Part shown: in pieces, positions 231-7,866 of the stretch
Numbering within the stretch: the first letter of the stretch is position 1
How the letters are laid out: every line of letters starts with the position of its first letter
From: an uncultured Coprobacillus sp.
GTDB taxonomy: Bacteria > Bacillota_I > Bacilli_A > ML615J-28 > CAG-698
Length of the DNA: 64,000 nucleotides
Reading direction: 5' to 3'
NCBI GenBank assembly: GCA_964385755.1
Contig: CAYLPZ010000001.1
Coordinates: 227,529 to 291,528 of the forward strand
Program-made: the position numbers and the translations under genes
Notes under the pieces: model-generated
Database searches by the model: none
The model's input: the letters and a program-made list of their open reading frames with translations, nothing else
What the model was told of the DNA's origin: nothing

Positions 231-1346
231 ATGTTTAACAAACACGAAATATCACGCAATGCGTGTCAATTATACGGCGGTCAAGCGAAGTGTGGCTACG
301 ATTGGTGGTGGCATTCCTTTACCGCGCGGAATGAAAAAACGGGCGAGGGGAAGGGCTTCTTTATTGAATACTTTCTCTGCAATCCACAAAGCGGCGGTGA
401 AGTTCCCGTGCTTGGTCAACTTGCAGAAAACAAAATGAACGGTGTTAAGCCTTCTTATTTGATGGTTAAGGCAGGTACTTGGGGCACTGATGCCGCTCAG
501 TTACATACATTTTTCGGTTGGAATAATATCGAGGTCTCATTCGGTATTCCGTTCTCGGTCAAGGCGGAAGATTGCTACTGCACCGAAACCGAGATGCGAG
601 GTCACGTTAAAATTGAAGATGCTGAGGCACACCCCGAATGGATGTGTCAGAATGGTGAAATGTCTTGGAATCTCAAAATCGATAAAAAAGTTGCATTCAA
701 CGTAGGCTACGGCGCAGGAAAGCTGTTCCGTAAGATGCAACTCTTTGAGATGTTTTGGCACGCAGAGGGAATGAAAACTGCTTACGAAGGTGAGGTCATT
801 TGGAACGGTGAGAAATATATCGTCACGCCCGAAATCTGCTATGGCTATGCGGATAAGAACTGGGGTAAGGATTTTACATCTCCTTGGGTGTGGCTCTCAT
901 CCAACAATCTGACAAGCAAGCTTACGGGCAAGAAACTGACTGACAGTGTTTTCGATATTGGCGGAGGTTGCCCAAAGGTCGGTACCGTCGCGCTCAAGAG
1001 GAAACTCCTTTCTGCCTATTGGTATGAGGGAAAATGCTATGAGTTCAACTTTTCAAAGTTTTGGACGTTCACGCGCACCAAATTTGAATGCAAAGAAACT
1101 GATACTCAGATCATCTGGCACGTGGAGCAGAAAACGTGGCGCAATCGTATGGTGACCGACATCACCTGCGAGAAAAAGGATATGCTTCTTGTCAACTATG
1201 AAGCCCCCAATGGTAAGAAGCTACATAAACGTCTATGGAACGGTGGTAACGGTAAAGGTATTGTTAAGCTCTATCGCGGCAAGAAACTCATCGATGAGGT
1301 TATTTGCGAGAATGTAGGCTGTGAATACGGAGAGTATGATTCTTAA
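231..1346 (+). CDS. Tocopherol cyclase family (Tocopherol_cycl-like) protein, compositionally foreign
   Basis: 371-aa ORF with a perfect RBS (AAGGAGG 6 nt upstream). GC is about 45-48% against ~28% in the flanks. Motifs VIWNGEKY…YGYADKNWGKDFTSPWVWL match the conserved (Y)xEKNWGxxFPxxWxWxQ core of tocopherol cyclases (VTE1 / Slr1737), and FFIEYF is analogous to FFEGWY. Confidence 0.55.
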   Translation: MFNKHEISRNACQLYGGQAKCGYDWWWHSFTARNEKTGEGKGFFIEYFLCNPQSGGEVPVLGQLAENKMNGVKPSYLMVKAGTWGTDAAQLHTFFGWNNIEVSFGIPFSVKAEDCYCTETEMRGHVKIEDAEAHPEWMCQNGEMSWNLKIDKKVAFNVGYGAGKLFRKMQLFEMFWHAEGMKTAYEGEVIWNGEKYIVTPEICYGYADKNWGKDFTSPWVWLSSNNLTSKLTGKKLTDSVFDIGGGCPKVGTVALKRKLLSAYWYEGKCYEFNFSKFWTFTRTKFECKETDTQIIWHVEQKTWRNRMVTDITCEKKDMLLVNYEAPNGKKLHKRLWNGGNGKGIVKLYRGKKLIDEVICENVGCEYGEYDS

Positions 1347-2676: not shown

Positions 2677-2700
2677 ATATTTTTGTTAGAACTAAATTAA

Positions 2701-2727
2701 TACCTTAGATTTTCTAAGGTATTTTTT
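2701..2727 (+). terminator. Rho-independent terminator
   Basis: TACCTTAGAttttcTAAGGTA hairpin followed by TTTTTTAT. Confidence 0.55.
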
Positions 2728-2761: not shown

Positions 2762-2809
2762 AAAATAAAAAAAGGATGCAATTGACATAACATCATTGCG
2801 TCCTTTTTA
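2762..2809 (-). terminator. Bidirectional hairpin terminator immediately 3' of the TIR-methyltransferase gene
   Basis: AGGATGCAAT (2773-2782) pairs with ATTGCGTCCT (2795-2804). An A-run lies on one side and a T-run on the other. Confidence 0.55.
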
Positions 2810-2811
2810 TT

Positions 2812-4188
2812 TTATTTCTTCTGGGCAACACCAACAAAATCAATTTCTGAATACCAGAAGGTTTCATCAGCAAATTTATTTTCTAATTCACTAAGTAAAT
2901 ATTCAATATCCTCTAATTTCTTCTGATTTACTGCATTGTATGGATCTTTTTCACAAAGGTTTTTTATATAATTCTTACGATAAGAGAAACGTTCTAAAAA
3001 GATTTCATAACGCTCATCCATGTCCATTCCAGAAATTTCTTTTACCCAATTGAACATTCTAACATTCTTGTAACCTGAGGAAATAAGTTGTGAATATATT
3101 TTTCTACCATTATGACGGTCAGAAATACCATCACAAGAAAGATGTATGTCAACCACCTTTTGTACTAGGTCATCATCATTATAACTTACAATCGAACCAT
3201 CATCAGATCCTCGAATAATGATATATCCATCCTTTGATAAAACTTTACGAATAGTTCGAAGCAACTTATTTGGATTCTTTAAGTGGTGAATAACTAAAGA
3301 AGCAAAAATAATATCAAATTTCTCAATATTCTTTTCTTCCATAATCTCTTCAAGATTATCAATTAATTCTTCATCTTCTAGATCAAGAACATAATATGAG
3401 GCTCCATCAAATGAAGAATTCTCTTTAGCATATTCAATCAGTTTTTCACTACGGTCCACTCCAATTAAATTAATCCCAGGAATATTAGCAAAACGATCTT
3501 TTGTAACATAACCATACGCACAACCCATATCAAGGATATTAATAGTATCTTTATGTGCTAATTGTGCAAGAACATAACGTATAGCGTTATTATCTGGCTC
3601 ACGTGTATTAGCAGCCTGAATTTTTAAACGTTTAAGTTCACTTTTAATCTCTGCCTTATAAGAGGAAAGATGTTTTCCAGTTGAAAGAGAAATTGATTCC
3701 TTTTGAAGTGGTATTTGTCCACTTCCCACTGGTTTTACACTATTTATAAACTTTTTGATAAAAGAGACAACATCAGAAATAGAAGAAACACCTATTTCAA
3801 AAGTTTGATAATTACGTAAAGACCTAGGAACATCACAACCACTGATATTTTTAATATAAGGGACAATACAAGCAGACTTCTTTCTACCAGATAAAATATC
3901 ATTATGAAAACTTTCTCTTTCGTAAGAAACCCATTGAGAAGTTAAATATTCAACTTTTGTAGCAATAGACACCAATACTGATGACTGTTCAAGGGCATCT
4001 TCAATAGCATTCTTATAAGCTGCAGCACCTACCTCATTTAAAACTATATTACTGTAGAAAACATTTAGATTTTCTTGTTTTAAAGCAAGATATAGTTTCT
4101 CCGCAAGATAACTATCCTCTGTATAGGTTCCATTTTCATCTGTGTTTTTAAAAGAAATAAATACATCATATCTCATATTGTTCACCAT
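2812..4188 (-). CDS. TIR-domain (TIR_2) protein fused to a class I SAM-dependent methyltransferase
   Basis: N-terminus YDVFISF…NAIEDALEQSSVLVSIATKVEYLTSQWVSYERE matches the TIR_2 pattern DVFISYS…AIxxSxxxIvVlSxxYxxSxWCxxE and includes the catalytic Glu. The C-terminal half carries methyltransferase motif I ILDMGCAYGYVT, the post-I acidic residue IGVDRS, motif II DIIFASLVIHHL and motif III LSKDGYIIIR. The true start may be the second Met at 4176 (a GGTGA RBS-like element lies 5 nt upstream). Confidence 0.8.
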   Translation of the reverse strand: MVNNMRYDVFISFKNTDENGTYTEDSYLAEKLYLALKQENLNVFYSNIVLNEVGAAAYKNAIEDALEQSSVLVSIATKVEYLTSQWVSYERESFHNDILSGRKKSACIVPYIKNISGCDVPRSLRNYQTFEIGVSSISDVVSFIKKFINSVKPVGSGQIPLQKESISLSTGKHLSSYKAEIKSELKRLKIQAANTREPDNNAIRYVLAQLAHKDTINILDMGCAYGYVTKDRFANIPGINLIGVDRSEKLIEYAKENSSFDGASYYVLDLEDEELIDNLEEIMEEKNIEKFDIIFASLVIHHLKNPNKLLRTIRKVLSKDGYIIIRGSDDGSIVSYNDDDLVQKVVDIHLSCDGISDRHNGRKIYSQLISSGYKNVRMFNWVKEISGMDMDERYEIFLERFSYRKNYIKNLCEKDPYNAVNQKKLEDIEYLLSELENKFADETFWYSEIDFVGVAQKK

Positions 4189-4211: not shown

Positions 4212-4240
4212 AATATATCATAGTTTTTCATTCAATACAA
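4212..4240 (-). promoter_or_regulatory. Candidate sigma-A promoter of the TIR-methyltransferase gene
   Basis: On the minus strand: TTGTAT, a 17-bp spacer, then the TG-extended TATATT. The implied TSS is ~17-30 nt upstream of the start codon. Confidence 0.35.
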
Positions 4241-4526: not shown

Positions 4527-4841
4527 ATGAGCAAAAATATTAATAAACGAGTTTATGATTATTTACTACTTATACCAAAAGGAAAAGTTGTAACTTACCA
4601 ACAAGTAGCACAATATCTTGGTAACAAAAACTTATCGAGAGTTGTAGGTAATGTATTACACGTAAATCCTGATCCAATAAACTATCCTTGTTATAAAGTA
4701 GTAAACTCAAAAGGTTTTCTTGCAAGAAATTTTGGTGATGGCGGAATTGAAAAGCAAAAAGAAAAACTAATGAATGATGGCATAGACGTTATAGATAATC
4801 GTGTTGATTTAACTAAATATCAGTGGAATGATAAAAAATAA
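4527..4841 (+). CDS. Minimal methylated-DNA-protein-cysteine methyltransferase (MGMT C-terminal DNA-binding domain only, active-site Cys retained)
   Basis: 104-aa ORF. GNVLHVNPDPINYPCYKVV matches the MGMT signature G-x-NP-x4-IPCHRV with the Cys present. There is no N-terminal Ada/Ogt domain. Confidence 0.65.
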   Translation: MSKNINKRVYDYLLLIPKGKVVTYQQVAQYLGNKNLSRVVGNVLHVNPDPINYPCYKVVNSKGFLARNFGDGGIEKQKEKLMNDGIDVIDNRVDLTKYQWNDKK

Positions 4842-6801: not shown

Positions 6802-7866
6802 TTATTTTTTTTCTTTTGAAAATTCACATCCACAATAGTCTTGACGATATAAATTAAATTTCTTTGAAAGCTCAATTGATTTCAAATAGCCACCCTTTTG
6901 TTTAAAGTCTGCATATAAATATGGCATTTGATATTTTTCTTCAAGATCAATTCCAATCTCATTAAGCCACTTAGCTACTTTATGTGGACTAATAGAAATA
7001 GTAGTTGTGAAAAAATCAAAATTATGTTTCTTTGCGAAAGAACAAGCTTCTTCCATACGTATCTTATAACAATTGTAACATCTTAAGCTCTTCTCACCTA
7101 ATGACTCAAGACCTGAAATACTATCTAAATATTCATTATGATTATATGCAGTATCAATAATCTTAATATCATCATATTTAAGCTTGCTAACTATTTCTCT
7201 TTGCGTTGCAAGTCGTTTTTGATATTCATTAATATTATCAATATTCGGATTATAATATAGGATAGTAATATCAAAATAATCATGTAAAAATGTTAAAGTA
7301 TAGCTACTACAAGGACCACAACAACTATGAAGTAATAGCTTTGGTCTAATATTTAATAACCTAATTTCTTGTAGTTTCTTATAAAAATCATCTAGACTAT
7401 GAATTTTTGTCATTTTCACTACTTTTAAATGATAAAATATGCTTATATCACCAAAAATGCTAATATCGCATTTTGATGTTTTTCCGCGGTAAATATAGTA
7501 ATCATTTTCTTTAATTACAGATATATCTGTATTATTCTTTATATCTATTTCCTTTTTAGAAATTGCTTTAAAATATTCAGTCACACTGTAATTATAATTA
7601 CCTTTGTATATGCAATTCTCATAATTAAAGTTTTTAAATACTTTATTTATAACTGAAGATGGTAAATAAAGTTCTTTGTAATTTGTTACATCAATTTTTC
7701 TAAAAGATTTATCAAAATAGTATGAATAAAGAATTTCATTTGAATGGATTAGGTGAAAATCTTTATCACTATCAAACACAACATTTTTCTTAACAATTAA
7801 TTCTTCAAGTTCTTTAACTGTAAAAAATGAATAATTGCTAATAAGTTTAAGATAATCATTACTCAT
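6802..7866 (-). CDS. queH: Epoxyqueuosine reductase QueH (DUF208) with a ~165-aa N-terminal extension of unknown function
   Basis: C-terminal ~190 aa carry LLLHSCCGPCS, YYNPNI, FTTTISISPHK, KGGYLKSIELSKKFNLYRQDYCGCEFS, which is the QueH Cys-cluster signature. The N-terminal 165 aa have no match. The start overlaps the upstream stop (TAATG), and an AGAGGAAAAG RBS is present. Confidence 0.7.
   Translation of the reverse strand: MSNDYLKLISNYSFFTVKELEELIVKKNVVFDSDKDFHLIHSNEILYSYYFDKSFRKIDVTNYKELYLPSSVINKVFKNFNYENCIYKGNYNYSVTEYFKAISKKEIDIKNNTDISVIKENDYYIYRGKTSKCDISIFGDISIFYHLKVVKMTKIHSLDDFYKKLQEIRLLNIRPKLLLHSCCGPCSSYTLTFLHDYFDITILYYNPNIDNINEYQKRLATQREIVSKLKYDDIKIIDTAYNHNEYLDSISGLESLGEKSLRCYNCYKIRMEEACSFAKKHNFDFFTTTISISPHKVAKWLNEIGIDLEEKYQMPYLYADFKQKGGYLKSIELSKKFNLYRQDYCGCEFSKEKK

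Follow-up and report, generated by a model that had tools for sequence, protein, structure and literature searches.

The gene followed up here encodes a real fusion of a TIR domain to a class I SAM-dependent methyltransferase (MTase) in a single protein, a combination that has not been characterised before and whose mechanism we infer. It lies in the window, by which we mean the entire stretch of 64,000 nucleotides analysed, from an uncultured Coprobacillus sp. Although slightly short of an even chance, the explanation that we favor is that the protein is a self-contained sensor-effector of the type found in biological conflicts and resembling abortive infection, in which a TIR effector would be controlled by the MTase module. 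A literature search found no paper on TIR- or HEPN-methyltransferase fusions, and no model in NCBIfam or PADLOC covers the fusion, the matches there being partial, below threshold or confined to single domains. This agrees with the initial annotation, which knew of no characterised system of this kind.

The N-terminal half of the protein is a TIR domain, and the searches that bear on this agree with one another. Pfam TIR_2 (PF13676) matches residues 9-127 (E=2.9e-7); the domain had been called a confident TIR_2, and while the assignment is indeed above threshold, it is a narrow pass rather than a confident one because it scores 31.4 bits against a gathering cutoff of 28. When a profile of the N-terminal 160 amino acids was compared with solved structures, all matches at E<0.8 were TIRs, the best of them 7uxr and AbTir (7uwg/8g83), with one marginal non-TIR match at E=0.85. 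A TIR-only AlphaFold model (pLDDT 86.7, pTM 0.83) was searched with Foldseek and its top 11 matches were all TIR domains, including those of RPP1, SARM1, MAL and SPARTA; the folds of DNPH1 and deoxyribosyltransferase (NDT) ranked below them. The TIR fold is itself flavodoxin-like, and the N-terminus resembles TIRs more closely than it does other Rossmannoid folds; the possibility raised earlier that it is a flavodoxin-like domain of a non-TIR kind is not borne out. The proposed catalytic glutamate is also in place. It is E90 of the segment TSQWVSYE (residues 83-90), it aligns with the glutamate of W-T-N-Y-E in AbTir, and neither W86 nor E90 varies among 20 homologues, and nor does the surrounding Y-E-R-E-S-F-H. 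The TIR is therefore real and looks catalytically competent, and we would expect it to be an NAD+-cleaving enzyme of the AbTir or SARM1 kind. It has a fold in common with the TIR NADases of the AbTir/BtTir and SARM1 types, whereas the similarity to them is weak (profile E about 0.003-0.01), its beta-A motif is FISFKN rather than FISH, and those proteins have no C-terminal SAM-MTase module.

The C-terminal half adopts the Rossmann-like seven-strand MTase fold and, judged by its sequence, is the module of a distinct MTase family. Residues ~207-329 match Pfam Methyltransf_31/12/11/23/25 (best E=2e-18; Methyltransf_31 reaches 66.9 bits, its cutoff being 27), and motif I, post-I (D245) and motif II (D292) are present and invariant, in keeping with the class I assignment made at the outset. 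Both domains, and with them the fusion, are backed by HMMs, two AlphaFold models and fold searches. The full-length AlphaFold model has a pTM of 0.53 and the linker is disordered, so the relative orientation of the two domains in it is unreliable. In the alignment of homologues this linker is the least conserved stretch, with the highest pN. Across the architectures in which the module occurs there are 29 invariant positions, among them residues of motif I, post-I and motif II and of the S-x-Y, E-x2-RL-x2-Q, RGSDDGS and SDRxNGRK segments. The neighbours of the MTase are of the small-molecule type (3mgg, phosphoethanolamine N-MT, JHAMT, OvsM and TmtA). With 3mgg-like enzymes (Methyltransf_31/11/12/25, comprising small-molecule and peptide MTases) it has motifs I, post-I and II in common, and with 3mgg itself a G-R-x-I-Y segment. 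However, identity to 3mgg, a protein without a known substrate, is about 21%, and what sets the window family apart is its S-x-Y / E-x2-RL-x2-Q lid, its RGSDDGS and SDRxNGRK signatures and its TIR, HEPN or DUF4062 heads. We tried to infer a substrate from sequence and structure neighbours and abandoned the attempt, as these are generic small-molecule MTases with diverse substrates. Many invariant residues, including charged ones, surround the MTase pocket. Such residues are as compatible with a genuine enzyme whose substrate is fixed as they are with a sensor.

Table 1. Coordinates of the TIR-MTase gene, its protein domains and motifs, and its putative transcription signals (window positions)
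Feature	Position	Strand	Remarks
Longest ORF	2812..4188	-	458 aa; listed among the window's ORFs
Probable CDS of the TIR-MTase protein	2812..4176	-	454 aa, starting at Met5
TIR domain	3739..4173	-	Residues 6-150 (458-aa numbering); Pfam TIR_2, PDB profile, AlphaFold, Foldseek
Putative catalytic W-x3-E motif, W86-V-S-Y-E90	3919..3933	-	Translation WVSYE
Variable low-confidence linker	3652..3735	-	Residues 152-179, between TIR and MTase module; pLDDT <50
Specialised class I SAM-MTase module	2815..3681	-	Residues 170-458; from the S-x-Y / E-x2-RL-x2-Q lid through the C-terminus
Motif I (SAM-binding loop) DMGCAYG	3511..3531	-	D220-G226; D, G, G invariant across all architectures
Family signature RGSDDGS, after strand beta-4/5	3193..3213	-	Putative substrate/ligand pocket; R, D, D invariant in module alignment A5
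Family signature SDRxNGRK	3100..3123	-	S, D, R, N, G, K invariant in A5
Intrinsic terminator of the TIR-MTase gene	2764..2813	-	Stem GGACGCAAU / AUUGCAUCC, then U-run; overlaps the stop codon
Candidate promoter	4212..4240	-	Weak -35 TTGTAT, 17-nt spacer, extended -10 TGaTATATT; read by eye

The MTase module is joined to several other heads. Searching with the SDRxNGRK motif recovered the family. An exhaustive search yielded 136 representative clusters with E<1e-30, and at least 136 clusters at 50% identity carry the module. Three TIR clades carry the module: TIR_A, to which the window protein belongs, TIR_B (P0139/P0140, L031 and L037-41) and TIR_C (L050-52 and L060). The W-x3-E motif is kept in TIR_B heads and the glutamate in TIR_C heads. 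In other members the TIR is replaced by a HEPN-like head with an invariant E...R-x4-H (E31 and R111-x4-H116 in 7 sequences), whose matches to Pfam HEPN_RiboL-PSP, HEPN_Swt1 and HEPN_Apea are all weak and below threshold (best E=0.0024). In IMG/VR, viral contigs carry a DUF4062-MTase version that is flanked by P22 antirepressor genes, P0260 has an N-terminus of unknown type followed by the module and then His_Phos_1, and L048 has a stand-alone module adjoining a STAND protein of the NB-ARC/TPR type. The TIR clade of the window protein for its part also occurs with HD_3, an ABC ATPase, PKD, WG repeats or a second TIR. Since toxic heads appear interchangeable on one and the same module, this swapping points to a conflict-type sensor-effector protein.

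How such a protein might work can be sketched in outline. The N-terminal TIR would be the effector, cleaving NAD+ through its intact W-x3-E site, and the MTase module would recognise a conserved ligand or substrate, probably methylate it, and control the effector; the same module would be wired to the other toxic or adaptor heads, namely those of the three TIR clades, the HEPN-like RNase and DUF4062. Engagement of the ligand or substrate by the module could shift the oligomeric state of the protein and so switch the head on, after which NAD+ would be depleted and growth would stop. Self-association is needed to form the active sites of TIR and of HEPN enzymes, and for this reason a switch in oligomeric state would be the most economical mechanism. 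Any antiphage role is equally putative. The proposed logic, in which a binding module controls a TIR NADase via assembly, is that of TIR-STING, TIR-SAVED and SPARTA TIR-APAZ/Ago, and the TIRs of TIR-STING and SPARTA are among the structural neighbours of the window TIR. The difference lies in the controller, which here has a class I SAM-MTase fold rather than being STING, SAVED or Argonaute.

The HEPN branch of the family raises a further possibility. In 5 loci, which represent at least 2 divergent lineages, HEPN-MTase genes directly adjoin a gene for a CorA-like membrane protein whose N-domain is soluble and whose TM helices are C-terminal. The copy in L022, a Paenibacillus locus, matches the CorA-like models of PADLOC at 1e-16, and the divergent copy in L053 has no match; the neighbour is confined to the HEPN branch and absent beside the window's TIR-MTase gene. 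A SAM-binding protein coupled to a CorA-like membrane protein is reminiscent of type III CRISPR CorA / SAM-AMP signalling (Chi et al. 2023, PMC10600005). Unlike that system, the HEPN-MTase/CorA-like loci have no Cas10 or CRISPR context and no cas genes were seen in them, and any SAM-derived ligand is a matter of speculation. The MTase module could be a switch centred on SAM and not a biosynthetic enzyme of the conventional sort, either monitoring the SAM/SAH pool (for instance to guard the cell from the SAM-degrading anti-restriction enzymes of phages) or binding or producing a SAM-derived messenger, and could relay its state to the TIR NADase, the HEPN RNase or the CorA-like protein. We regard this version as distinctly unlikely. 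Were it true, it would mean SAM-linked immune signalling outside CRISPR, in a new and widespread sensor-effector family of gut Firmicutes and beyond.

Both halves of the protein are under strong purifying selection. Homologues with 54-90% identity occur across MAGs of Bacilli and Clostridia. Against the 90%-identical orthologue, which resides in a 45%-GC genome, pN is 0.05 with synonymous sites saturated; in most comparisons only pN is meaningful, because synonymous sites are saturated or compositionally skewed (pS>0.75). For L001 and L009 a rough dN/dS of ~0.12-0.16 can be given, and the dN/dS of the TIR half is as low as that of the MTase half. So much conservation would be unusual in a defence gene; it is at about the level of CTP synthase: relative to the genome that carries L019, identity is 55% for the TIR-MTase protein and 52% for PyrG. 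The distribution is nevertheless patchy, with 7 loci among 185,579 species representatives in a scan that finds close relatives only. The gene is neither ubiquitous nor part of an already characterised fusion, in contrast to the core-gene scenario that had been set against the defence reading. Carriage by mobile elements was considered and set aside. None of 50,697 phage records has a match, IMG/VR yields the DUF4062 variant only, and two plasmids have weak matches (24-26% identity) to the MTase alone, without a TIR.

The genomic setting is of the housekeeping kind. The locus had been described as looking accessory; in fact the 20 kb around the gene encode EamA, QueH, aminopeptidase P, phosphoglucomutase, a CDF transporter and similar functions, and its GC content of 30.8% is native to a genome of 28.4%. 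The gene at 231-1346, earlier described as compositionally foreign, is the sole compositional outlier there. Within one species the locus is stable from sample to sample, and there is no synteny with the closest orthologue (L008/L104, 90% identity) at either the DNA or the protein level. A comparison of about 25 homologous loci found mostly housekeeping neighbourhoods (lspA-rluD, sepF/divIVA, the aro operon, thymidine kinase, pyrG). The convergent membrane protein at 1753-2676, put forward earlier as an effector partner, has no family match in Pfam or PADLOC and no homologue beside any of these loci, and was rejected. ECF-sigma/RsgI and lspA-rluD neighbours were likewise dismissed as partners and taken as lineage synteny, because they recur only in Oscillospiraceae-like loci and in varying positions. 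Consistent with the initial annotation, the gene appears to form a single-gene unit without a conserved neighbour. Any association with defence islands is weak at best, and the enrichment asked about in the initial annotation is weak or absent. Among 119 neighbour proteins from 24 non-redundant loci, PADLOC, run without a background control, found HEC-06, two WYL regulators, two mad3-like proteins, PD-Lambda-5_B, one PtuA-like match and a single type II R-M pair; a TIR-HD_3 protein is also among the neighbours, and neighbours of the defence type occur in a minority of loci. The strong conservation and purifying selection, the lack of phage matches, the housekeeping neighbourhoods and the weak island signal weigh against the conflict-type reading, whereas the missing synteny and the defence-type neighbours in that minority of loci are in its favor.

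Two named defence systems were considered and rejected for the window gene. Like Thoeris, it is a chromosomal bacterial gene for a TIR with a catalytic-type glutamate and has weak HMM similarity to that system. However, the match to the NCBIfam model for Thoeris type III ThcB4 reaches 18.1 bits where 220 would be required, PADLOC gives no ThsB match for the window protein (it does for a sister clade), the TIR shares its polypeptide with an MTase module, and no ThsA-type, SLOG, Macro or other receptor-effector gene is conserved beside any of the about 25 loci. The best PADLOC defence match of the TIR half is PDC-S66 (TIR; 2.3e-6, residues 4-146) and that of the MTase half is mad2 of MADS (1.2e-11, residues 200-325), each covering one generic domain core. 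The mad2 match spans positions 277-394 of a 492-position profile, the core SAM-binding region only. Other MADS genes are absent from the window, where the scanned ORFs belong to ordinary Pfam families or to none, and PADLOC run on 231-1346, 1753-2676 and the TIR-MTase gene itself found no mad match beyond this partial one.

Some of these observations would be at home in a bifunctional metabolic enzyme, whose TIR acts by cleavage or base exchange on an N-glycosidic bond of NAD+ or of a different nucleotide and whose MTase methylates the released base or ribosyl product, yielding a constitutive, conserved small molecule with a housekeeping or niche role in gut Firmicutes. The conservation at the level of PyrG, the selection on both halves, the native composition, the housekeeping neighbours of a locus that is stable within its species, the resemblance of the MTase to small-molecule enzymes, the many invariant charged residues of its pocket and the presence of DNPH1 and deoxyribosyltransferase folds among the structural neighbours of the TIR model all accord with such a role. 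We nonetheless consider it rather unlikely. TIRs outrank nucleoside-processing folds in every comparison, no biosynthetic partner gene is conserved near any of the about 25 loci, the distribution is patchy (in the scan limited to close relatives), and no single small-molecule pathway accounts for the HEPN-like and DUF4062 fusions and the CorA-like and STAND links. The small-molecule character of the MTase would also suit a Thoeris-like signal generator, in which infection prompts the TIR to make a nucleotide of the cyclic-ADPR type, the MTase methylates it and so makes or inactivates a second messenger, and an effector encoded elsewhere reads the signal. AbTir and the 7uxr TIR, the closest solved relatives by profile, are producers of cADPR isomers, and the faint ThcB4 match and the PADLOC TIR matches lean the same way. 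Methylation of the TIR product by the MTase was already implied in the initial annotation. It does not suit the variants of the module with HEPN-like and DUF4062 heads, which cannot make such a signal; with the missing receptor-effector gene and a ThcB4 score so far below its cutoff, we give a signal generator only a small chance.

The putative HEPN-type RNase head and the mad2 match, MADS being a methylation-associated system, would sit well with a unit resembling restriction-modification that operates on RNA or another macromolecule, where the MTase marks self, the head attacks what is unmarked or foreign, and the target of the TIR is nucleic acid or NAD-capped RNA instead of free NAD+. This too is improbable. 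Similarity to RNA MTases is a general property of the fold and is outscored by that to small-molecule MTases, Pfam detects no nucleic-acid-binding domain in the window protein, mad2 is matched only in its SAM-binding core, and activity on nucleic acids is a minority activity of TIRs. TIR domains are, moreover, classic homotypic interaction modules, and the family is annotated in databases as 'methyltransferase domain-containing protein', both of which would be in order if the protein were an ordinary methyltransferase with the TIR as a non-catalytic scaffold for oligomerisation or protein interaction. A scaffold would hardly explain the invariance of W86, E90 and their Y-E-R-E-S-F-H surroundings, a TIR dN/dS as low as that of the MTase half, the retention of the glutamate by each of the three independent TIR clades that carry the module, or the swap to a HEPN-like head in which R-x4-H is invariant, and we think this very improbable indeed.

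TIR domains have a central place in the immunity of bacteria, plants and animals, and new modes of TIR control have each revealed new signalling chemistry. In the conserved family described here, a SAM-MTase fold is built into one chain with a TIR or, in sister proteins, with DUF4062 or a HEPN-like putative RNase that often has a CorA-like partner. A sensor module, as in the conflict-type reading that we favor, would represent a new class of trigger, perhaps one tied to SAM metabolism. Should the protein prove to be a housekeeping enzyme, a catalytic-type TIR would have a metabolic role outside immunity, which is rare.

The gene itself has transcription signals that partly match those first described. 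A promoter of its own is plausible when read by eye, although the consensus scan did not call it because its -35 element agrees at 3/6 positions only. A riboswitch or other RNA element was looked for and rejected, as no Rfam model matches at its gathering score in the 340-nt upstream region or the whole window; the Rfam matches in the window at E<1 are at chance level only. The gene had been placed between hairpin terminators, which holds for its downstream end and not for its upstream side, where there is no hairpin. The terminator at 2764-2813 is a 19-nt inverted repeat, 84% complementary, with an RNA folding dG of -17.1 kcal/mol (z -3.2). Rather than the shared bidirectional terminator proposed earlier, a separate hairpin at 2699-2723 serves the convergent gene. 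The true start is likely Met5 and not the first codon of the 458-aa ORF. Its ATG lies at 4176-4174 with a Shine-Dalgarno sequence, GGTGA, at 4182-4186, 5 nt upstream, homologues begin with M-x-Y-D-V-F in the alignment, and two public entries (P0001/P0002) are 454 aa long and 100% identical to the window protein.

The TIR-MTase is a fusion of a TIR domain to a class I SAM methyltransferase, as the initial annotation had proposed. In Pfam searches, residues ~207-329 match the Methyltransf_31/12/11/23/25 group (best E=2e-18) and residues 9-127 match TIR_2 (E=2.9e-7; 31.4 bits, just above the gathering score of 28; numbering follows the 458-aa ORF). Because the TIR_2 score barely clears the threshold, the TIR assignment was retested in three independent ways. 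Searched against solved structures, a profile built from 13 family members over their N-terminal 160 residues retrieved TIR domains alone at E<0.8; 7uxr and AbTir (7uwg/8g83) ranked highest, plant TIRs and TLR2 came next, and E90 aligned to the Glu in AbTir's W-T-N-Y-E. An AlphaFold model of the TIR segment was confident (pLDDT 86.7, pTM 0.83), and Foldseek matched this model best to the TIR domains of RPP1, SARM1, MAL and SPARTA in the PDB, with the related DNPH1 and deoxyribosyltransferase folds placed lower. By these tests the protein is a member of both the TIR domain family and the class I SAM methyltransferases. The nearest relatives of the MTase are an uncharacterized archaeal methyltransferase (3mgg) and assorted small-molecule methyltransferases. 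Like the initial annotation, we know of no characterized system of this kind: PADLOC and NCBIfam contain no model for the fusion, and the literature searched, in which subscription journals are mostly uncovered and an earlier mention is possible, describes neither a TIR-MTase nor a HEPN-MTase fusion. What appears to be new is an unprecedented methyltransferase-fold partner module on an effector-coupled TIR protein; all that we say of its function we infer.

The family is real, widespread and internally coherent. A word-indexed search returned 359 matches, and most of the 120 listed are alike in architecture (~451 aa) and 54-100% identical. The assemblies behind the matches listed are those of uncultured Bacilli, Clostridia, Eubacteriales and Oscillospiraceae, and the most specific name among them is "methyltransferase domain-containing protein". 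Conservation is spread over the whole protein: in an alignment of 20 sequences, 120 columns are invariant, among them Y-D-V-F-I-S-F-K-N, W86, Y-E90-R-x-S-F-H, those of the SAM motifs and numerous positions of the lid and C-terminal region; the linker (152-179) is the least conserved stretch and is also disordered in the AlphaFold model. Compared with a 90%-identical ortholog whose genome has 45% GC, the gene differs by 0.05 at nonsynonymous sites and is saturated at synonymous ones, in both domains, and between the window and the genome bearing the homologous locus L019 the TIR-MTase is 55% and CTP synthase 52% identical. These comparisons indicate strong purifying selection on both halves, roughly as on a core gene.

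An exhaustive representative search (6,495 matches, 136 with E<1e-30) identified residues ~170-458 as a unit that is also found behind other N-termini. This MTase module always opens with S-x-Y ... E-x2-R-L-x2-Q and carries RGSDDGS and SDRxNGRK, and 29 positions, SAM-binding residues included, are invariant across its architectures. Its heads include three TIR clades, all of which retain a catalytic-type Glu: the window's own TIR_A (FISFKN), a second TIR_2 clade, TIR_B (FISYRR; for example P0139, TIR_2 at 64.5 bits), and TIR_C (F-x-SYSH-x-D). A helical head of ~165 aa with an invariant Glu and R-x4-H is HEPN-like, its Pfam affinities, all sub-threshold, being to HEPN families only (RiboL-PSP 4/7, Swt1 2/7, Apea; HEPN biology is reviewed in PMC3710099). 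On two viral contigs the head matches DUF4062 at 24.3 bits, below the cutoff of 24.7, and P22_AR_N antirepressor-type genes flank the gene on both sides. In P0260 the module sits between an unknown N-terminus and a His_Phos_1 domain. Stand-alone modules of ~290 aa also occur, one of them 20 nt downstream of a STAND protein gene and upstream of an LRR protein gene. In at least two divergent lineages, and at five loci in all, the HEPN-MTase gene directly adjoins one for a CorA-like membrane protein of 448-500 aa; the L022 copy matches PADLOC CorA-like models (1e-16) and Pfam CorA (32 bits) and carries a Y/F-G-M-D/E motif, and the divergent L053 copy has no family match. Paenibacillus-like and other lineages seem to have conserved the two genes as a unit. 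The window's TIR clade is itself found with HD_3, ABC ATPase, PKD repeats, WG repeats or a second TIR; in P0257 (1217 aa) a window-type TIR and linker precede an HD_3 domain.

TIR-MTase homologs have no conserved neighbor in the nine contigs that came with precomputed annotation and in about 15 other loci from metagenomes. Their flanks are mostly housekeeping (aro operon, lspA-rluD, sepF/divIVA, thymidine kinase, pyrG, gyrase, copA), and clustering of all neighbors gave only lineage-restricted synteny for the TIR versions. The locus of the 90%-identical ortholog is the same in four samples of its species and shares no flank with the window; there a PH-domain gene, absent from the window, ends 24 nt before the TIR-MTase start and may be co-transcribed with it. 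On the defense-island enrichment raised in the initial annotation, the PADLOC matches among 119 neighbor proteins from 24 non-redundant loci were scattered: an R-M pair of type II, a HEC-06-like protein, two regulators of the WYL type and a few isolated matches. These counts have no matched control and point to weak or no association. One locus has a convergent TIR-HD_3 protein. The TIR-MTase had no match in 50,697 phage records, and only two plasmids matched, weakly and in the MTase part only. Two neighbor proteins in the 24 loci match PADLOC mad3 (best 5.4e-27); the TIR-MTase itself belongs neither to MADS nor to the CRISPR-CorA module.

NAD+, the substrate of TIR domains, and RNA, the substrate of HEPN domains, are unrelated. 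The two kinds of domain have in common that each arrests growth as an effector in conflict systems and is activated when it self-associates. Given that the MTase module occurs joined to DUF4062, to a HEPN-like head and to each of three TIR clades, with CorA-like and STAND proteins as further companions, its behavior is that of the part that senses or regulates in a sensor-effector protein, and not that of a biosynthetic step. Since its SAM site and many charged residues of its pocket are almost fully conserved, the module should still bind SAM and something specific. This sensor-like behavior leads us to favor, with somewhat less than even confidence, a model in which the TIR-MTase would be a self-contained conflict-type protein: its MTase module would bind a conserved ligand, which it would probably also methylate, and, once ligand-bound, would gate the TIR NADase. 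The CorA-like neighbor of the HEPN-MTase sister branch recalls type III CRISPR systems in which CorA effectors are activated by SAM-AMP (PMC10600005), and this link raises the speculative possibility of SAM-centered sensing by MTase-module proteins.

Core-gene-level conservation, native composition and housekeeping neighbors are unusual for defense genes, as is the lack of matches in the phage records searched and of the fusion on plasmids; all of these speak against a conflict-type protein. These features keep alive a metabolic alternative, rather unlikely in our estimate, in which the TIR would be an N-glycosidase or base-exchange enzyme and the MTase would methylate its product; the module's many heads and its CorA-like and STAND company disfavor a single biosynthetic step. 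A Thoeris-like signal generator that acts through an effector in trans is quite improbable, since the protein fails both the neighbor test and the curated-model test for Thoeris, and we consider RNA-level modification or restriction logic just as improbable. Least probable of all is a TIR that serves as a non-catalytic scaffold, since W86 and E90 stay invariant from one clade to the next.

Because a GGTGA Shine-Dalgarno with a 5-nt spacer precedes the second in-frame ATG (Met5, 4176-4174) and is lacking at the first, the identical database proteins (P0001/P0002) are 454 aa, and all homologs start at M-x-Y-D-V-F, the true product is most likely the 454-aa protein of 2812..4176. The bidirectional terminator thought to be shared with the convergent membrane protein gene resolves into two hairpins, one after the TIR-MTase (dG -17.1 kcal/mol, z -3.2) and one assigned to the convergent gene because Ts come next on the plus strand. 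The proposed sigma-A-like promoter has a plausible extended -10, but its -35 matches at only 3/6 positions and a promoter scan made no call. No Rfam element was found in the 340-nt leader, and at gathering score the whole 64-kb window matched no Rfam family, with no tRNA-like, rRNA or riboswitch match.

Coordinates of features in the window and at homologous loci
Feature	Location	Strand	Remarks
371-aa ORF	window 231-1346	+	weak Tocopherol_cycl match (30.9 bits); 46% GC in 28% GC window
Perfect 11-bp hairpin	window 2699-2723	+	Ts follow; terminator of convergent gene 1753-2676
Terminator stem (GGACGCAAU / AUUGCAUCC), then U-run	window 2764-2813	- (coding)	directly after TIR-MTase stop codon
TIR-MTase ORF, 458 aa	window 2812..4188	-	from ORF list
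Candidate extended -10 promoter	window 4240-4212	-	TTGTAT, 17 nt, TGaTATATT; plausible by eye
MGMT-type protein, 104 aa	window 4527-4841	+	DNA_binding_1 domain only
QueH (epoxyqueuosine reductase), 354 aa	window 6802-7866	-	QueH domain on residues 177-352 only
WYL regulators	L001 5042-6040; L020 4756-5757		neighbors of homologs
Homolog of 231-1346	L028 4935-6017	-	full-length, 49% identical
TIR_2...HD_3 protein, 991 aa	L035 8632-11607	-	convergent with and abutting TIR_A-MTase gene
PH-domain gene, 126 aa	L104 5597-5977; L105-L107; L008 7607-7987		bPH_1, 137 bits
HEPN-MTase + CorA-like pairs	L022 8001-10822; L024 8001-10840; L055 7386-10282; L053 2308-5303
DUF4062-MTase, 463 aa	L108 / L109 5425-6816		two IMG/VR contigs
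MTase module (297 aa), NB-ARC/TPR STAND protein (910 aa), LRR protein	L048 5213-10358

Contrary to the initial annotation, the locus does not look accessory: the neighbors are ordinary (an MGMT-type DNA-binding protein, MerR-GyrI regulator, EamA transporter, QueH, ABC ATPase, aminopeptidase P, phosphoglucomutase, CDF transporter and SPFH protein) and the gene has 30.8% GC in a 28.4% window. The convergent membrane protein, a suggested effector partner, has neither a family match nor a homolog adjoining any related gene, which argues against that role. The 371-aa ORF, rightly called compositionally foreign, is the sole outlier; its GC equals that of the genomes bearing the 90%-identical ortholog, and its L028 homolog lies two genes from a TIR-MTase, which could be coincidence or loose linkage. 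The ~176 N-terminal residues of the QueH ORF have no family assignment. The short MGMT-type protein carries P-C-Y-K-V at the position of an active-site-like sequence, the canonical MGMT motif being P-C-H-R-V.
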